Of a stretch of DNA of 64,000 bases, positions 20,401 through 30,040 are shown piece after piece. The stretch is from a virus (lineage: Duplodnaviria > Caudoviricetes). Below the pieces are notes generated by a model, which saw only the letters and a list, made by a program, of their open reading frames with translations, made no database searches and had not been told where the DNA came from. Position 1 is the first letter of the stretch, and each line of letters begins with the position of its first letter. Location: IMG/VR virus record IMGVR_UViG_3300000727_000007, positions 1 through 64,000 of that record, one strand, 5' to 3'. Made by a program: the position numbers and the translations under genes.

Positions 20401-20474
20401 GTCTCGGTGGCTCAATCAGGTACAGCGACGGACTGTTAATCCGTTATCTCCCGGTTCGAATCCGGGCTGAGACG
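20401..20474 (+). tRNA. tRNA-Asn(GTT)
   Basis: Cloverleaf; acgga-ctGTTaa-tccgt. Confidence 0.95.
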
Positions 20475-20502
20475 TTTCATAGTAACAAAATGGAGGTTTA
20501 TT

Positions 20503-20820
20503 ATGGAAGCAACAACAATAATTTACGCTGGAGCTATTTTTGGATATTTATTCCATATATTCCAAGAAGACGGCTATAGTCTAGCTCCGTATTGGCAGAA
20601 CGGTAAATTACAATTGAACATGGTAGTGTCTTTGATTATAGGTATTGTATCTATCATAGCCACAATACAGTCAGGAGCTTTCGCTGCTGTCGGTGCAACA
20701 CCATTAGAATTGTTCTTGAGCGCTGCCGCATTAGCAGGTGGTATACCATTTGCAATAAATACTGTGGTAACTAAAAGTACTTTAGGAAATACCACAACCG
20801 ATGAAGAAGGAGTAGCATAA
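20503..20820 (+). CDS. holin-like membrane protein
   Basis: About 3 hydrophobic helices, directly upstream of the endolysin. Confidence 0.65.
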   Translation: MEATTIIYAGAIFGYLFHIFQEDGYSLAPYWQNGKLQLNMVVSLIIGIVSIIATIQSGAFAAVGATPLELFLSAAALAGGIPFAINTVVTKSTLGNTTTDEEGVA

Positions 20821-20850
20821 ACCCTTCTCCCTCTTTTTAGGAGGCATTAA

Positions 20851-21603
20851 ATGACACAAGCAACATTTTTACAATATCAAGACGCAATGGAAAGAGTGTT
20901 GAGATATGACATTATTCACAATGGATTACCTAATTACGTAGAAGTCAATGGAGAAAAAATATCCAAAGCGGATTACATTGATGCAGTCAAGAGAGTACAA
21001 GCTTTCTTAGTTAAAGAGAAAGTAGACCCTAGATATGTTAATATGGGTGGTACAACATCGCCTGGTACAATAGTTCCAACTCCTATCCCTGTAACTAAAG
21101 GAGTCTATATTTGTCAAAGATATAGGCATAATATGGATCAGGGAACAGGTTATTGGTGCGCTCCTTTTACAGAAGCACAAATAATATATGAACTGTATGG
21201 GTTAGATGTAGCTCAAAGTTATTTAGCACAAGTTTCAGGAACCACAACTGATGGTACTGGACACCCAGGTATAATAAAAGGTTTAGAAACATGGGATGAT
21301 AAAGCAGGGCATGATGTTTCTGTGGATTTCCAGAACTTTAGTAGTACTGGATGGCAAAAATGCGCAGAAATGGTTGCAGACCCAAATATCGGTCTAGGAT
21401 TCCATGTTTTGTATAGAAACCACACAGGCTGGGGGCACTACATGTTTCCAGTGATTATAGACATGAACAAGAAACAAATAACTCTTATGGATAGTTTAAA
21501 TTCAACAGACATGATAACAGTGAGTTTTGCTGAATTTGAAAAATGGATTGCAAACACTCCATATAATCAACCATCATGTTTAATAGTCAAAAAAATAAAA
21601 TAA
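20851..21603 (+). CDS. pseudomurein endopeptidase (pseudomurein-binding repeats + C39-like cysteine peptidase; PeiR-like endolysin)
   Basis: Two PMBR-like repeats (YQDAMERV...LPNYV; YIDAVKRV...PRYV); DQGTGYWCAP, GHY, DSL catalytic motifs. Confidence 0.8.
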   Translation: MTQATFLQYQDAMERVLRYDIIHNGLPNYVEVNGEKISKADYIDAVKRVQAFLVKEKVDPRYVNMGGTTSPGTIVPTPIPVTKGVYICQRYRHNMDQGTGYWCAPFTEAQIIYELYGLDVAQSYLAQVSGTTTDGTGHPGIIKGLETWDDKAGHDVSVDFQNFSSTGWQKCAEMVADPNIGLGFHVLYRNHTGWGHYMFPVIIDMNKKQITLMDSLNSTDMITVSFAEFEKWIANTPYNQPSCLIVKKIK

Positions 21604-21615
21604 GGAGAGATTTAG

Positions 21616-21852
21616 ATGGAAGACGCAGATGTTAAATTAAAAGTATTCGATTTATTAATGGAACAACCAACTCTTAGTATGGCGGACGACCAACATTTTG
21701 TAGACTTGATATTCCACAAATTCGGAAGGATAGCTACAACCACACAGGTTGCAACAGCAAGAGAAGACATTAAGAAAATAGACTCTAAAGCTGATATTGA
21801 AGCTATACCAAGACCTGAAGCATGGGAACTTGGTAAAGACCCAAGAGAATAG
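21616..21852 (+). CDS. hypothetical protein
   Basis: AGGAG RBS. Confidence 0.6.
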   Translation: MEDADVKLKVFDLLMEQPTLSMADDQHFVDLIFHKFGRIATTTQVATAREDIKKIDSKADIEAIPRPEAWELGKDPRE

Positions 21853-21891
21853 TTGTGCAATGCACAACATTATTTTATTTTTTGAGTGGTG

Positions 21892-21908
21892 ACCGAAACC
21901 TTTATATA
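21892..21908 (+). promoter_or_regulatory. archaeal BRE+TATA promoter of the tRNA array
   Basis: ACCGAAACC-TTTATATA about 40 nt upstream of the first array tRNA. Confidence 0.75.
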
Positions 21909-21948
21909 ATCATAAAGAACATAGTATTAGTTCGCTGCTCATTTTATT

Positions 21949-22032
21949 AGGAAGGTGGCTGAGCCAGGCTAAAGGCGGAGGACTTAAGATCCTTTGTACG
22001 TAGGTGCGCGGGTTCGAATCCCGTCCTTCCTA
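21949..22032 (+). tRNA. tRNA-Leu(TAA)
   Basis: Cloverleaf with long variable arm. Confidence 0.93.
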
Positions 22033-28289: not shown

Positions 28290-28317
28290 ACCCACCATTT
28301 TTATTTTAGGTGAAAAA

Positions 28318-29010
28318 ATGGACGAAGAAGGTAAAAAGTTTTACGCAATAACAGAAGAATTAAAAATAATGCATGGTGAAATAGGGGAAGATTGTGATCT
28401 TTCATGGAAAGATTGCTTCGATATTATCGATGGTGACTTTTCGACTCTTTGTTATTATGCAAAAAGAGAAACAAATGATGAATCTAAAATTGTTATAGAT
28501 ACTTTAAATGAATTAGCACATGATGCAATCTTATGTAGAATTGCATATGAGAATGAAGATTTAAAGGGTCCACGTTTTGGCGAAATCATAGAAGATATGA
28601 AAAAGATACACGATGCAAAAAGACACGACTATGCTTCTGATGAAGATAGGTTTTCGAACTTAGCTATATCAGAAAAAATGGGAATACCTGCATGGAAAGG
28701 TTGCCTTGTACGTATAAGCGATAAATATTCAAGACTTGATGAATTCACCAAGAAAGAAGAACTTATGGTAAAAGATGAAAGTATAACTGACACTCTAAAT
28801 GATATGGCAAATTATGCAATAATCTGCAGAATCTTATATGAAAGAGGTCCACAGCCAGTAAAAGAAGGAATTGATATAACTGACCTATTTGATTCCCTTG
28901 GAGTCGATATGGAAGGTGTTGATATGACTGATTGGGATGCTGTAAAAGAAAGGTTATACAGTCAAGTATATGAAAAGAAAGTTTGTGGTTGCAATGGTGA
29001 CAGTGATTAA
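28318..29010 (+). CDS. nucleotide-modification-associated domain (Nmad1/DUF1599-like) protein
   Basis: KRHDYA...N...RISDKYSRL...ESITDTLNDMANYAI. Confidence 0.75.
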   Translation: MDEEGKKFYAITEELKIMHGEIGEDCDLSWKDCFDIIDGDFSTLCYYAKRETNDESKIVIDTLNELAHDAILCRIAYENEDLKGPRFGEIIEDMKKIHDAKRHDYASDEDRFSNLAISEKMGIPAWKGCLVRISDKYSRLDEFTKKEELMVKDESITDTLNDMANYAIICRILYERGPQPVKEGIDITDLFDSLGVDMEGVDMTDWDAVKERLYSQVYEKKVCGCNGDSD

Positions 29011-29347
29011 TAGCGATGTGTATAAAATCCTTGCACATCATTTTTTAGATAAACTAAAAGCACGTGCAAGTGCCGCAAGATATCTTGAAAAGGATTATTC
29101 AGTAAGACTTTATACTGTGGGTGTTTCTCCTAAGTTTGAAGCGTACCCACCAGACATTTCTAATTACGTTGATGTAAGTGCGCCACGAGGACACTTAGAA
29201 GATGCATACAATAATAGAGATAAACAAAGAACTTTGGCTATAGTAGACAGAGAAAAAGTATTATATGATTCTATATCATTAATCCATTTCTATAAAACCA
29301 AAGAGAAATATGAAGCAATAAAAGATAAATACAAAAACGGGCATTAG
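28970..29347 (+). CDS. hypothetical protein
   Basis: Coupled ORF; exact start uncertain. Confidence 0.55.
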   Translation: MKRKFVVAMVTVINSDVYKILAHHFLDKLKARASAARYLEKDYSVRLYTVGVSPKFEAYPPDISNYVDVSAPRGHLEDAYNNRDKQRTLAIVDREKVLYDSISLIHFYKTKEKYEAIKDKYKNGH

Positions 29348-29511
29348 CGTAGAGGCCACGCGGTCGGCTGTAGAAGCAGGAGTATAAAACAAAACTATAT
29401 CATGTATATCATTTAAAATCCCTTAATAAAATATAATCTCACTTGTATTCTTAGAATACAACTCTTGCTACAGATACCGATTATACCCCGGTTCAAATCC
29501 GGGATGTCCGA
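29338..29511 (+). tRNA. tRNA-Tyr(GTA) with a 102-nt canonical intron (29374-29475)
   Basis: C1:G72; BHB with central helix ctgt/acag, bulges aga and ata, inner helix agcaggagt/actcttgct. Confidence 0.92.
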
Positions 29512-29524
29512 TTCAGGTGATTAT

Positions 29525-29872
29525 ATGTTTAAAAAACTTGGCGAAAAATTAGGGTTAACACGAGAAAATATATTAGGCGCAAAATTTGAAAGTGATAGTA
29601 AAGACGAGGCATATTATGATAGAAACCTTGCAATCCAACTAGCAGCTTATTTAGCTTACAGAGATGGATTTAACGTAGGGGTACGCGATAGAGATAGCGA
29701 TTGGCCTATCATACAGATTGAATTGCCAACAGGACAAATAACATATCACATACCTAAAGATGAACTACTATTACTAAACGAAAGGAGATTCCGAGAACCT
29801 GCTTTACCTTGGGATGGACACTCTTTAAGAGTAAAACAGGAAAGGATAAAACAATATTTGTCTCAGAGATGA
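29525..29872 (+). CDS. WDGH-motif protein
   Basis: LPTGQITYH...WDGH; AGGTGA RBS before ATG 29525. Confidence 0.75.
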   Translation: MFKKLGEKLGLTRENILGAKFESDSKDEAYYDRNLAIQLAAYLAYRDGFNVGVRDRDSDWPIIQIELPTGQITYHIPKDELLLLNERRFREPALPWDGHSLRVKQERIKQYLSQR

Positions 29873-29882
29873 GACAAAATTT

Positions 29883-29956
29883 GCCGGTATAGCATAGTTT
29901 GGGAATGCGCTTGACTTGTAATCAGGAGATCGGGGGTTCGATTCCCTCTGCTGGCT
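29883..29956 (+). tRNA. tRNA-Thr(TGT)
   Basis: cttga-ctTGTaa-tcagg. Confidence 0.93.
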
Positions 29957-29965
29957 TTTCTTTTT

Positions 29966-30040
29966 GGGAACATAATGTAGTCTGGTTATCAGGCCAGGTT
30001 TGGAACTTGGTCAGCATCGGTTCAAATCCGATTGTTCCCA
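29966..30040 (+). tRNA. tRNA-Pro(TGG)
   Basis: ccagg-ttTGGaa-cttgg. Confidence 0.9.

Follow-up and report, generated by a model that had tools for sequence, protein, structure and literature searches.

Positions 20401-30040 of the 64,000-nucleotide stretch of DNA that we analysed (the window) are occupied by a block of tRNA genes, an RlaP-family nucleotidyltransferase gene, a Ro60 gene and Y-RNA-like units, with every feature on the + strand. The block belongs to a viral record 91.9 kb in length (GC 34%) that is ~69% complete, the full genome being about 135 kb. Between 20400 and 30041, ARAGORN and Rfam together identify 26 tRNA genes in which all 20 amino acids are represented, and bear out a first-pass annotation that had claimed 26 CCA-less tRNAs covering them all. 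Twenty-five were called on the + strand by ARAGORN and likewise by Rfam (bit scores 47.8-70.3, gathering score 29); the 26th, tRNA-Tyr(GTA), needed either the E-value mode of Rfam or ARAGORN with introns allowed. CCA after the discriminator base is encoded in none of the 26 genes, all of them look intact, and the viral tRNAs carry archaeal identity marks. The features are listed below; tRNA genes given without further remark were called by both ARAGORN and Rfam.

20401-20474, +, tRNA-Asn(GTT); ARAGORN, Rfam 62.0 bits; CCA not encoded
20851-21603, +, PMBR-containing endolysin-like gene; Pfam PMBR 25.4 bits (cut-off 24.9), PHROG endolysin
21949-22032, +, tRNA-Leu(TAA)
22041-22125, +, tRNA-Leu(TAG)
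22288-22359, +, tRNA-Val(TAC)
22364-22435, +, tRNA-Cys(GCA)
22437-22512, +, tRNA-Thr(GGT)
22640-22714, +, tRNA(CAT), probable tRNA-Ile2; Rfam 70.3 bits
22717-22804, +, tRNA-Ser(GCT)
22807-22879, +, tRNA-Gly(TCC)
22883-22957, +, tRNA-Ile(GAT)
23017-23103, +, tRNA-Ser(GGA)
23309-23393, +, tRNA-Ser(TGA)
23436-23510, +, tRNA-Asp(GTC)
23515-23588, +, tRNA-Lys(TTT)
23595-23666, +, tRNA-Glu(TTC)
23669-23740, +, tRNA-Gln(TTG)
23743-23817, +, initiator tRNA-Met(CAT), archaeal type; Rfam 59.9 bits
23982-24054, +, tRNA-Ala(TGC)
24061-24134, +, tRNA-Trp(CCA)
24144-24217, +, tRNA-His(GTG)
24223-24297, +, tRNA-Phe(GAA)
24306-25088, +, RlaP-family Pol-beta nucleotidyltransferase, 260 aa; PF10127 E 3.8e-37, PHROG nucleotidyltransferase
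25079-25152, +, tRNA-Arg(TCG); overlaps the RlaP stop
25174-25255, +, tRNA-Arg(TCT), long variable arm
26119-26186, +, Y-RNA-like unit 1; 5' box GGCUGCGAUAGA, 8-bp variable helix, UACUUC box, 3' box ending UCUCC
26197-26373, +, Y-RNA-like unit 2; tRNA-like body, Y-stem halves permuted at the anticodon position
26412-26517, +, Y-RNA-like unit 3; T-arm-like hairpin GCGGUUCAACUCCGC
26544-26699, +, Y-RNA-like unit 4; boxes and helix of the family
26751-28289, +, Ro60/TROVE protein, 512 aa from ATG 26751; TROVE E 3.6e-30, vWA_Ro60 26.8 bits
29338-29511, +, tRNA-Tyr(GTA); Rfam 37.8 bits (E-value mode), ARAGORN with introns
29883-29956, +, tRNA-Thr(TGT)
29966-30040, +, tRNA-Pro(TGG)

The co-oriented block that holds the tRNAs also houses replication and nucleotide-metabolism genes, and two protein genes terminate within tRNA genes. 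Genes without an RNA role are interspersed, namely the PMBR-containing endolysin-like gene, a secreted Cys-rich protein, DUF1599 and WDGH. The PMBR gene, whose tblastn matches include Methanobacteriales virus vir080 and the PhiF3 pseudomurein endoisopeptidase, has no RNA function and is a host marker inside the array. Since the terminase is closest to that of Methanobacterium virus PhiF1, the lysin is pseudomurein-binding and the tRNAs bear archaeal identity marks, the predicted host is a Methanobacteriales archaeon; the virus is large, contractile-tailed and infects pseudomurein-walled methanogens. PhiF1, the nearest isolate, carries zero tRNAs, and the island is therefore an acquired accessory.

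Decoding capacity of the viral tRNA set

The CAT tRNA at 23743-23817 has an A1:U72 pair and a GGG/CCC anticodon stem of three G:C pairs, which is the archaeal initiator pattern and confirms its earlier assignment as initiator Met. The other CAT tRNA (22640-22714) has the virus's own tRNA-Ile(GAT) as its nearest neighbour, at 79% identity, with the GGAC/GTCC acceptor top and A73 in common; because of this resemblance it is probably tRNA-Ile2, the identity already proposed as probable, and would read AUA after modification of C34. If it is Ile2 it is not Met, so that methionine would be served by the initiator alone, and elongator tRNA-Met is probably missing from the viral set.

The decoding set is near-minimal: codons ending in A or G are read by U34 tRNAs, and two-codon boxes by G34 tRNAs. 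It suits the A/U-rich codon usage of the virus, in which Ile is most often encoded by ATA (33.8 per 1000). Six four-codon boxes have a U34 tRNA only, leaving their T/C-ending codons without a G34 reader, and in four-codon boxes T-ending codons occur as often as A-ending ones yet have no dedicated tRNA. The viral set is thus not self-sufficient, as elongator Met is probably missing and the six boxes have only U34 tRNAs; full tRNA “replacement”, as in the first-pass annotation, is too strong a term.

The tRNA-Tyr gene consists of two exons (29338-29374 and 29477-29511) separated by a 102-nt intron at 37/38 (29375-29476), which has the canonical archaeal helix-bulge-helix-bulge-helix with a central CUGU/ACAG helix and bulges AGA and AUA; the tRNA has a C1:G72 pair and a short variable loop. 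A G at 24143, just 5' of tRNA-His, could act as G-1 opposite C73.

RlaP, Ro60 and the Y-RNA-like units

As had been described, the Pol-beta gene sits between tRNA-Phe and tRNA-Arg: its open reading frame starts 8 nt past tRNA-Phe, and its TAG stop (25086-25088) is formed by U8-A9-G10 (positions 8-10) of tRNA-Arg(TCG). The PF10127 match covers profile positions 13-248 of 249, and residues G34, S35, D46, D48 and D80 (GS, DxD, D) are invariant with the RlaPs of a complete 79-kb archaeal virus (G002) and of Halogranum tailed virus 1 (HGTV-1, Halomagnusviridae), so that the active site is predicted to be intact. RlaP extends damaged RNA ends by 1-2 nucleotides, favours such RNA as substrate in vitro and allows over-damaged tRNA to be aminoacylated again (bioRxiv 10.64898/2025.12.29.696909), in agreement with the stated link between RlaP-type nucleotidyltransferases and RNA repair. 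Its product ends in a 3'-OH that is not directly joinable by RtcB, an issue raised by the authors of the same study. The first-pass annotation had found no RNA ligase in the window and had pointed to RtcB, Rnl, Pnkp or a CCA enzyme as candidates elsewhere in the genome. Neither RtcB nor an Rnl1/Rnl2-type ligase is matched in the window or in the remainder of the 91.9-kb record (~69% complete), and within the 91.9 kb available there is likewise no match to a polynucleotide kinase/phosphatase or to a PF01909-type (class I CCA-type) nucleotidyltransferase. A PTH2 peptidyl-tRNA hydrolase is present elsewhere in the viral genome.

The Ro60 frame is open already from ATG 26700 (529 aa); the database gene call (P0002) uses the 512-aa form. 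Residues 37-517, nearly the full length, align with PDB chains 9L5Y/9KOP (E 1.7e-31), named as Thermus phage phiLo Ro60 (PMC12135203), and the MIDAS motif DLSGS is present. Immediately upstream lie four co-oriented repeat units, in keeping with the co-oriented block of Ro60 and candidate Y RNAs described earlier. Their boxes are common to all four units and to five in the closest relative (L005), and the 8-bp helix covaries. Unit 1 has a fold z-score of -2.66, unit 2 is called by ARAGORN as a tRNA with an 81-nt insert and its halves fit the family helix at 8/8 pairs (counted on the alignment), and the 3' box of unit 4 stops 1 nt short of the upstream Ro60 start codon. Two of the four contain tRNA-like modules. 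By homology, the locus encodes a Ro60 ring protein together with four Y-RNA-like candidate partners. As in bacterial and phage Rsr(Ro60)/YrlA systems (Chen et al. 2014, PMC4201824; phiLo, PMC12135203), small RNA genes immediately precede Ro60; each RNA has a terminal stem that bears a conserved 5' box, and some contain T-arm-bearing tRNA-like modules. However, the 5' box here is UGCGAUAG / GGYUGYG(A)UAGA rather than the bacterial GNCGAAN0-1G motif, no Rfam family is matched at E <= 1, the four units are in tandem with one permuted within a tRNA-like body, and the host domain is Archaea. Ro60 binds misfolded non-coding RNA precursors (PMC4201824), and damaged tRNA triggers RtcR-controlled rsr/Y RNA operons (PMC7790460), which upholds the response of bacterial Rsr/Y RNA operons to tRNA damage that had been cited for this locus.

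Comparison with known systems

The first-pass observation holds, and the island is well conserved; it is a further example of a module known from a haloarchaeal virus, archaeal tRNA clusters and bacterial jumbo phages. Precedents are the combination in HGTV-1, the TROVE genes in archaeal tRNA clusters (2019; PMC6333295) and the jumbo-phage version (2021; PMC7824862). HGTV-1, likewise an archaeal myovirus, is reported to have 36 tRNAs that span all 20 amino acids (PMC8651126), one of them intron-bearing. Its TROVE/Ro60 is the best isolate match to the present Ro60 (32% identity over 94%), and its RlaP (PF10127, E 7e-36), annotated only as ‘nucleotidyltransferase’, lies 0.65 kb from Ro60 in the same orientation, in one block with RtcB and the intron-bearing tRNA. 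In addition to RtcB, HGTV-1 has two Rnl2 ligases, a CCA-adding enzyme and LysRS (PMC8651126), none of which was found in the 91.9 kb here; conversely, it lacks the PTH2 of the present virus, and its host is a haloarchaeon rather than a methanogen. Y RNAs are neither annotated nor described in the accessible parts of its records and published accounts.

Morgado and Vicente (2019, PMC6333295) describe clusters of 10-29 archaeal-type tRNAs in Halobacteria and Methanobrevibacter (M. ruminantium M1 and rumen MAGs RUG344, RUG648 and RUG833); 20 of 29 contain a TROVE gene, and the clusters are associated with mobile elements and proviruses. According to the accessible text of that paper, which makes no mention of RlaP, Y RNAs or PTH2, all 20 isotypes occur in a single cluster (Haloarcula vallismortis) and many genes are called pseudogenes, whereas the carrier here is clearly a tailed virus and 26 of 26 genes look intact. 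The jumbo-phage RNA repair sets reviewed by Iyer et al. (2021, PMC7824862) have an identical parts list (tRNAs, RlaP, TROVE, RtcB/Rnl), with the proposed logic that nuclease-attacked tRNAs are restored, RlaP re-adding lost nucleotides. Brevundimonas and Caulobacter jumbo phages encode both Ro60 and RlaP. Their hosts are bacterial, however, RlaP distribution mirrors that of RNA ligases (PMC7824862) while no ligase was found here, and in Caulobacter phage CcrColossus Ro60 and RlaP are about 30 kb apart, as compared to 1.6 kb, inside a tRNA array, in the present virus.

The linkage recurs more widely. G002 has 20 tRNAs, of which 4 contain introns; its array encloses Ro60, RlaP and PTH2, and RtcB was not found in its complete 79-kb genome. 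Of 40 Ro60 loci from metagenomes that span 10 kb or more, 25 carry at least two tRNAs (maximum 38), and RlaP is frequently found 1.5-3 kb further downstream; many bacterial Ro60 loci bear tRNA arrays and RlaP. The 11.5-kb fragment of L005 has no RlaP. Because the linkage recurs in independent viruses and cellular loci, the tRNA array, Ro60 and RlaP are functionally linked and not chance neighbours.

Possible roles of the island

We consider it rather likely that the locus serves a large Methanobacteriales virus as an accessory island for translation maintenance, and homology gives good support to a role in supplying tRNA and in repairing or quality-controlling RNA. From established tRNA biology, multi-tRNA precursors would depend for their maturation on host enzymes (RNase P, RNase Z and CCA-adding enzyme), the last being required because no CCA is encoded. 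RlaP would put one or two nucleotides back on trimmed 3'-OH ends of broken tRNA, which a host ligase would seal; this dependence is plausible, since maturation of the intron-bearing tRNA-Tyr would already need the host splicing endonuclease and RtcB. The Ro60/Y-like particle may bind damaged or misfolded tRNA-like RNAs and pass them to host nucleases or repair enzymes, and PTH2 may recycle stalled peptidyl-tRNA. If so, a working tRNA pool would be kept during infection; the threat may be host tRNA-cutting defences, host shut-off or faults arising as the virus expresses its own tRNAs on a massive scale. Several observations weigh against this reading: no ligase is matched in the 91.9 kb, the 3'-OH left by RlaP is unsuited to direct joining by RtcB, the Y-like units lack an Rfam match at E <= 1 and differ in their 5' box, the tRNA set is not self-sufficient, the L005 fragment has no RlaP, and the block is interrupted by genes without an RNA role.

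A more specific role is possible, although it is not what we would expect: the island might defeat host anticodon nucleases or tRNA-cleaving abortive-infection systems, with viral tRNAs replacing cut ones, RlaP and a host ligase carrying out repair, and Ro60/Y RNA sensing or clearing fragments. Phage tRNAs reportedly counteract defences of the PARIS, retron and PrrC types, which favours such a role. RlaP has been proposed to mend tRNA hit by nucleotide-excising ribotoxins such as RloC (bioRxiv 10.64898/2025.12.29.696909), the jumbo-phage sets are read likewise (PMC7824862), and damaged tRNA induces bacterial rtc/rsr operons (PMC7790460). However, no viral ligase was found in the 91.9-kb record, and these nucleases cut one or a few tRNAs, so that a whole-alphabet set is broader than needed. 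Codon-usage supply, compensation for host shut-off and viral tRNA quality control fit equally well as tRNA-cleaving abortive infection.

That the tRNAs merely match codon usage or offset decay of host tRNA after shut-off, with RlaP and Ro60/Y RNAs helping to mature and check overexpressed, CCA-less, partly intron-bearing viral tRNA precursors rather than mending nuclease damage, seems unlikely to us. The U34-rich set does match the A-ending codons favoured by a 34% GC genome, the leading Ile codon ATA is accompanied by the probable Ile2 tRNA, the two protein genes that end inside tRNA genes imply joint mRNA-tRNA precursors in need of orderly processing, and Ro60 is a known binder of misfolded precursors (PMC4201824). 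Against this, the equally frequent T-ending codons of four-codon boxes go unserved, RlaP favours damaged RNA in vitro (bioRxiv 10.64898/2025.12.29.696909), and PhiF1, the closest isolated relative, copes without any tRNA. We regard as improbable a takeover of host RNA decay, in which the Ro60/Y-like particle would redirect or block a host exoribonuclease and shield viral transcripts, the tRNAs and RlaP being co-transferred cargo. Methanobacteriales are not known to have PNPase, so that the exosome or some other nuclease would have to act as partner, which counts against it. The precedent is Thermus phage Ro60, which with Y-like RNAs forms a complex with host PNPase and attenuates RNA degradation (PMC12135203), but the repeated linkage of tRNA array, Ro60 and RlaP across domains argues for a tRNA-centred role.

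The archaeal tRNA array and its virus

The island, a plus-strand block of tRNA, RlaP, Ro60 and Y-like RNA genes at window positions 20401-30040, had been described in the first-pass annotation as carrying 26 CCA-less tRNA genes for every amino acid. ARAGORN and the Rfam covariance model RF00005 (gathering score 29 bits) return the same 25 tRNA genes on the plus strand between 20400 and 30041, with scores of 47.8-70.3 bits. The 26th gene, tRNA-Tyr(GTA) at 29338-29511, is recovered by Rfam in E-value mode at 37.8 bits with 105 nt skipped, and by ARAGORN when introns are allowed, which places a 102-nt intron after position 37. 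The 26 genes do cover all 20 amino acids, CCA follows the discriminator base in none of them, and no tRNA was found in the remaining 28 kb of the record beyond the window.

The tRNAs are of archaeal type. The tRNA-Tyr cloverleaf has a C1:G72 pair and a 5-nt variable loop, and its intron at position 37/38, as read from the sequence, has the canonical helix-bulge-helix-bulge-helix form. Specifically, a 4-bp central helix (C32U33G34U35/ACAG) and an 8-bp inner helix are combined with two bulges of 3 nt each, A36G37A, which holds the 5' cut, and AUA, which follows the anticodon stem and holds the 3' cut. The tRNA with a CAT anticodon at 23743-23817 displays the A1:U72 pair and GGG/CCC anticodon stem of archaeal and eukaryal initiators, in agreement with its earlier assignment as initiator Met. 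A second CAT tRNA (22640-22714) is 79% identical to the virus's own tRNA-Ile(GAT), as compared to 71% for the next best match, and the two have the top of the acceptor stem and A73 in common. As ATA is also the commonest Ile codon of the virus (33.8 per 1000), the earlier reading of this tRNA as a probable Ile2 is reasonable; if it is correct, the set contains no elongator tRNA-Met.

The array was also proposed to replace host tRNAs; the set is near-minimal, and full replacement is not guaranteed. U34 tRNAs serve A/G-ending codons and G34 tRNAs serve two-codon boxes; a U34 tRNA stands alone in six four-codon boxes (Ala, Gly, Val, Pro, Leu-CUN and Arg-CGN), in which T-ending codons are as frequent as A-ending ones, and an elongator Met would be missing if Ile2 is assigned correctly.

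Two further features of the array were observed. With a length of 82-83 nt and a 13-nt variable arm that forms a stem, the tRNA-Arg(TCT) at 25174-25255 is unusual for tRNA-Arg, and its copy in L005, the closest IMG/VR relative (an 11.5-kb fragment), is of equal length (10248-10330). Within this 34% GC genome, three spacers in the array are G+C-rich (22535-22640, 23825-23974 and 25285-25400) and fold into multi-stem structures with z-scores of -1.7, -2.5 and -1.6, respectively; they could be additional non-coding RNAs or decayed tRNAs.

The source record is 91,920 bp long, is labelled a provirus and has a CheckV completeness of 69%. An identical 512-aa Ro60 protein is present on six contigs, and since the longest measures 134,817 bp, about 43 kb of the genome lies outside the record analysed. 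The minus-strand half encodes a portal, prohead protease, HK97-type capsid and tail sheath, which makes the virus a myovirus. The plus-strand block encodes thymidylate kinase, dCTP deaminase, a UDG-PHP fusion, Pol III alpha, nucleases, thymidylate synthase, NrdD, an SNF2 helicase and a DHH phosphoesterase. In this archaeal virus, the replicative polymerase is of bacterial type and divided over two genes, the UDG-PHP fusion and a separate Pol III alpha core with NTPase, finger and HhH domains (window 7960-9537, 11095-13542).

The host is a pseudomurein-walled methanogen (Methanobacteriales), as judged from the terminase, a PMBR protein and the archaeal tRNA features. At 39% identity over 92%, the putative large terminase is closest to that of PhiF1, a Methanobacterium virus whose host is Methanothermobacter, and the second best match is HGTV-1 (Halogranum tailed virus 1). 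The PMBR protein is encoded within the tRNA array, and its matches are to a Methanobacteriales virus and to the pseudomurein endoisopeptidase of PhiF3. We considered a bacterial phage and rejected it, as Archaea are indicated throughout: by the identity marks and intron of tRNA-Tyr, by the initiator tRNA, by a PTH2 peptidyl-tRNA hydrolase, by the PMBR lysin and by the relationships of the terminase. The terminase relatives in IMG/VR are fragments of 13-30 kb, too short to hold the island. An ORF resembling a LAGLIDADG homing endonuclease adjoins the terminase gene (genome 83433-84167, minus strand; 5434-6168 of L004, a stretch of the same record outside the window).

RlaP, Ro60 and the Y-like RNAs

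The genes and RNA elements that accompany the tRNAs are as follows.

24306-25088, plus strand: RlaP (PF10127, 128.7 bits, E 3.8e-37, profile positions 13-248 of 249)
26119-26699, plus strand: four Y-like repeat units, ending 52 nt before the Ro60 ATG at 26751
26700/26751-28289, plus strand: Ro60 ORF (TROVE PF05731, 105.9 bits, E 3.6e-30)
Genome 86860-87306 (L004 8861-9307), minus strand: archaeal-type PTH2 peptidyl-tRNA hydrolase (E 4.5e-27)

The nucleotidyltransferase previously noted between tRNA-Phe and tRNA-Arg is RlaP. An alignment with the RlaPs of HGTV-1 and G002 (IMGVR_UViG_3300017963_000032, an archaeal virus with a related Ro60) shows no change at residues G34, S35, D46, D48 and D80; as these are the GS motif and the three aspartates required for catalysis, the Pol-beta catalytic residues are present. 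By analogy, the viral enzyme would add one or two NMPs to an RNA 3'-OH, as RlaP adds 1-2 nucleotides to damaged RNA 3' ends and rescues aminoacylation of over-damaged tRNA after ligation (bioRxiv 10.64898/2025.12.29.696909). A CCA-adding enzyme was considered and rejected, as the protein has no PF01909 match and belongs to a different Pfam family. Relatives of RlaP were found by a Pfam search of Ro60-bearing records and with a home-made HMM; a peptide-pattern scan of IMG/VR gave no matches.

Ro60 lies 1.6 kb from RlaP within the tRNA array and, as first annotated, shares the co-oriented block with the candidate Y RNAs. Over residues 37-517 the protein aligns to the Thermus phage phiLo Ro60, whose structure is known (9L5Y/9KOP; E 1.7e-31). 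The vWA_Ro60 match scores 26.8 bits, just below the 27.7 cut-off, and a MIDAS motif, DLSGS aligned to DVSGS of 9L5Y/9KOP, identifies a C-terminal vWA domain. For the phage Ro60 with its Y-like RNAs, the structure has been solved and binding to host PNPase reported (PMC12135203).

A secreted Cys-rich ORF and the four Y-like units lie between tRNA-Arg(TCT) and Ro60. From its 5' end, each unit runs through a GGYUGYG(A)UAGA box, a first variable stretch, a second box with the sequence UACUUC and a variable module; a segment complementary to the first variable stretch follows, and the unit closes with a 3' box whose last bases are CUCC. Five such units lie upstream of the Ro60 of L005, which is 53% identical to ours. 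Because the stems are bulged, pairing was judged by alignment and RNAalifold, not by ungapped complementarity against shuffles. Across the nine copies from the two viruses, an 8-bp helix persists although both of its strands vary in sequence (for example GAGAAGAG/CUCUUCUC, GAUAACAG/CUGUUAUC and GAUGGCGG/CCGUCGUU); counted on the alignment, seven copies pair fully and the other two contain a single mismatch each. Fold z-scores calculated for the spacers and Y units one sequence at a time lie between -0.9 and -2.7, which is modest and no proof alone. In a scan of 20000-30500 at E <= 1, Rfam returned only tRNA and sub-threshold antisense Plastid-ycf2 matches, and no family besides tRNA reaches its gathering score in the island region. 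Unit 2 is permuted inside a tRNA-like body, which ARAGORN reports as a tRNA interrupted by an insert of 81 nt; a T-arm-like hairpin occurs in unit 3, and no tRNA-like module was seen in units 1 and 4; the tRNA-like units recall the tRNA mimicry of bacterial YrlA. The Ro60-binding motif is GNCGAAN0-1G in bacteria and GGUCCGA in vertebrates (PMC4201824). The 5' box, UGCGAUAG here and UGCGUAG in L005, differs from the bacterial consensus, with which it was compared. Judged from covariation, the units are a well supported structured RNA family, and they are candidate Y RNAs, the putative ligands of Ro60. In G002, boxes of the GUUGCGAAGAG type, which are near the bacterial GNCGAAG Ro60 motif and are followed by a T-arm-like GGGUUCAAGUCCC, sit between tRNA genes and not beside Ro60 (L006, a part of G002, at 18604 and 19271).

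Recurrence of the tRNA array with Ro60 and RlaP

Four of six IMG/VR contigs with a related Ro60 hold 10, 16, 11 and 27 tRNAs in the flanks that were fetched. G002 is a complete genome of 79,464 bp with terminal repeats and 39% GC, and its terminase is closest to that of HGTV-1. ARAGORN finds 20 tRNAs at 45.3-55.7 kb, four of them intron-bearing, and Ro60, RlaP and PTH2 lie inside this array, with PTH2 (L006 16468-16839) directly after RlaP; PTH2 is therefore a recurring fourth component in two archaeal viruses. No PMBR protein was found in G002. HGTV-1 is the best isolate match to the viral Ro60 (32% identity over 94%) and carries, co-oriented and in this order, RtcB, an intron-bearing tRNA-Asp, TROVE, HNH and RlaP (annotated 'nucleotidyltransferase', E 7e-36), but lacks PTH2.

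The association extends to bacteria. At least two tRNAs, and up to 28, are present at 25 of 80 genome loci with a related Ro60, mostly from Bacteroidota, and RlaP is present at five of the 80. Among the 40 metagenome Ro60 loci of at least 10 kb, 25 hold at least two tRNAs and 14 at least seven (up to 38); RlaP occurs at 8 of 80 metagenome loci, for which flanks of at most 10 kb on either side were fetched, and its typical position is 1.5-3 kb downstream of Ro60. In bacterial genomes, a 20-kb stretch taken at random contains far fewer than one tRNA on average. Compared with this background, the linkage shows that the tRNA array, Ro60 and RlaP are a recurrent module, which is probably mobile. 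Co-oriented arrays of 10-38 tRNAs very often follow bacterial and metagenomic Ro60 genes (for example at loci L077, L045, L110 and L116, among L012-L091 and L105-L184), and look like a widespread type of mobile island. In L005, HNH and PD-(D/E)XK endonuclease ORFs lie between tRNAs (7936-8919).

In the methanogen virus, the island is an acquired accessory region, since tRNA genes are lacking in PhiF1 and the Ro60 matches listed name no Methanobacterium virus. A megablast search of the island against phage records gave no match.

RNA repair and the relation to known systems

The first-pass annotation interpreted the island as a counter-defence that replaces and repairs tRNAs, and noted no RNA ligase gene in the window. 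Ligases were sought by Pfam scans of ORFs of about 95 aa and above in the plus-strand block of the window and of most ORFs at 64-92 kb, and by six-frame searches of the whole 91.9-kb record for RtcB, RNA_ligase (PF09414), Rnl1 (PF09511) and NTP_transf_2 (PF01909). As first noted, no ligase was found in the window, and no RtcB, PF09414 or PF09511 match was found in the 91.9-kb record, which is about 69% complete; nor did these scans reveal a PF01909-type nucleotidyltransferase or a polynucleotide kinase, the sole AAA_33 match being sub-threshold and inside thymidylate kinase. Thus, the RNA ligase neighbourhood from which RlaP takes its name was not found in this record, and in contrast to T4-type tRNA repair by Pnkp and Rnl1, there is no Rnl1/Rnl2 family match. 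The complete G002 genome likewise yielded no RtcB.

The sequence establishes the genes with their integrity, archaeal type and arrangement, and the comparison with other loci establishes that their linkage recurs. From what is known of these families, the viral tRNAs would be matured by host RNase P, RNase Z and CCA enzyme, and the tRNA-Tyr intron would be removed by the host splicing endonuclease and RtcB. RlaP may heal damaged tRNA ends, Ro60 and the Y-like RNAs may form a particle, and PTH2 may recycle tRNA. Sealing by a host ligase is plausible, as tRNA-Tyr splicing would already rely on one, and Methanothermobacter has a 3'-OH/5'-P RNA ligase that could join the 3'-OH ends left by RlaP. 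RtcB itself requires a 3'-phosphate, a mismatch that the RlaP authors also point out (bioRxiv 10.64898/2025.12.29.696909). Archaeal viruses may have a ligase-less pathway for surveying and repairing tRNA, in which Ro60 and Y RNAs, some of the latter built on tRNA bodies, would capture damaged tRNA, RlaP would rebuild its ends, PTH2 would free stalled tRNA and the host splicing ligase, always present because archaeal tRNAs carry introns, would be co-opted for sealing. We consider this pathway rather unlikely as a whole. To our knowledge, no Ro60/Y RNA system has been described for the archaeal domain, so if the pathway exists it would be the first, and the island would be one mobile module common to bacteria, phages and archaeal viruses.

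The observation itself is confirmed. The counter-defence interpretation, in which cleavage of host tRNA would be the trigger, is partly supported; it is how such modules are usually read, here extended to a new host group, as several reports make clear. HGTV-1 was described as the archaeal virus with the most tRNAs, 36 that together serve all 20 amino acids, and also encodes RtcB, Rnl2 ligases, a CCA enzyme and LysRS (PMC8651126). Morgado and Vicente describe 29 archaeal genomes with tRNA clusters, among them those of Methanobrevibacter ruminantium M1 and of rumen MAGs; 20 of the 29 clusters contain a TROVE gene, and there are ties to mobile elements and proviruses (PMC6333295). Iyer et al. 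reviewed jumbo-phage tRNAs, RlaP, TROVE and ligases as a counter to tRNA-cleaving defences (PMC7824862). Beyond PMC6333295, our search for literature on methanogen viruses with tRNA arrays or Ro60 found nothing.

What is new is a virus of Methanobacteriales whose archaeal tRNA set spans the full alphabet and includes an intron-bearing tRNA-Tyr, together with RlaP and Ro60 1.6 kb apart in the array, a covarying Y-like RNA family and a recurring PTH2. Little is known about the viruses that infect methanogens of the gut and rumen, and PhiF1, the nearest isolate, carries no tRNAs; the present genome shows that a methanogen virus can bear a nearly complete archaeal decoding set plus RNA-care genes. 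The island extends, and does not alter, the current picture of viral tRNA and RNA-repair modules. As tRNA array, Ro60 and RlaP travel as a trio in viruses of haloarchaea, in a further archaeal virus and at many bacterial loci, the functional link between Ro60/Y RNA and tRNA damage becomes testable in a new domain, and the four Y-like RNAs, one fused to a tRNA body, offer compact natural substrates for Ro60 recognition.

Lastly, genes and tRNAs overlap in the island. The RlaP ORF begins 8 nt past tRNA-Phe and, as first annotated, ends inside tRNA-Arg(TCG), its TAG stop (25086-25088) forming nucleotides 8-10 of the tRNA; a 125-aa ORF (28970-29347) likewise ends on U8A9G10 of tRNA-Tyr (29345-29347). 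These stops imply joint mRNA-tRNA precursors, in which the RNase P cut would strip the stop codon and leave a non-stop mRNA; a tie between such mRNAs and the viral PTH2 is conceivable.
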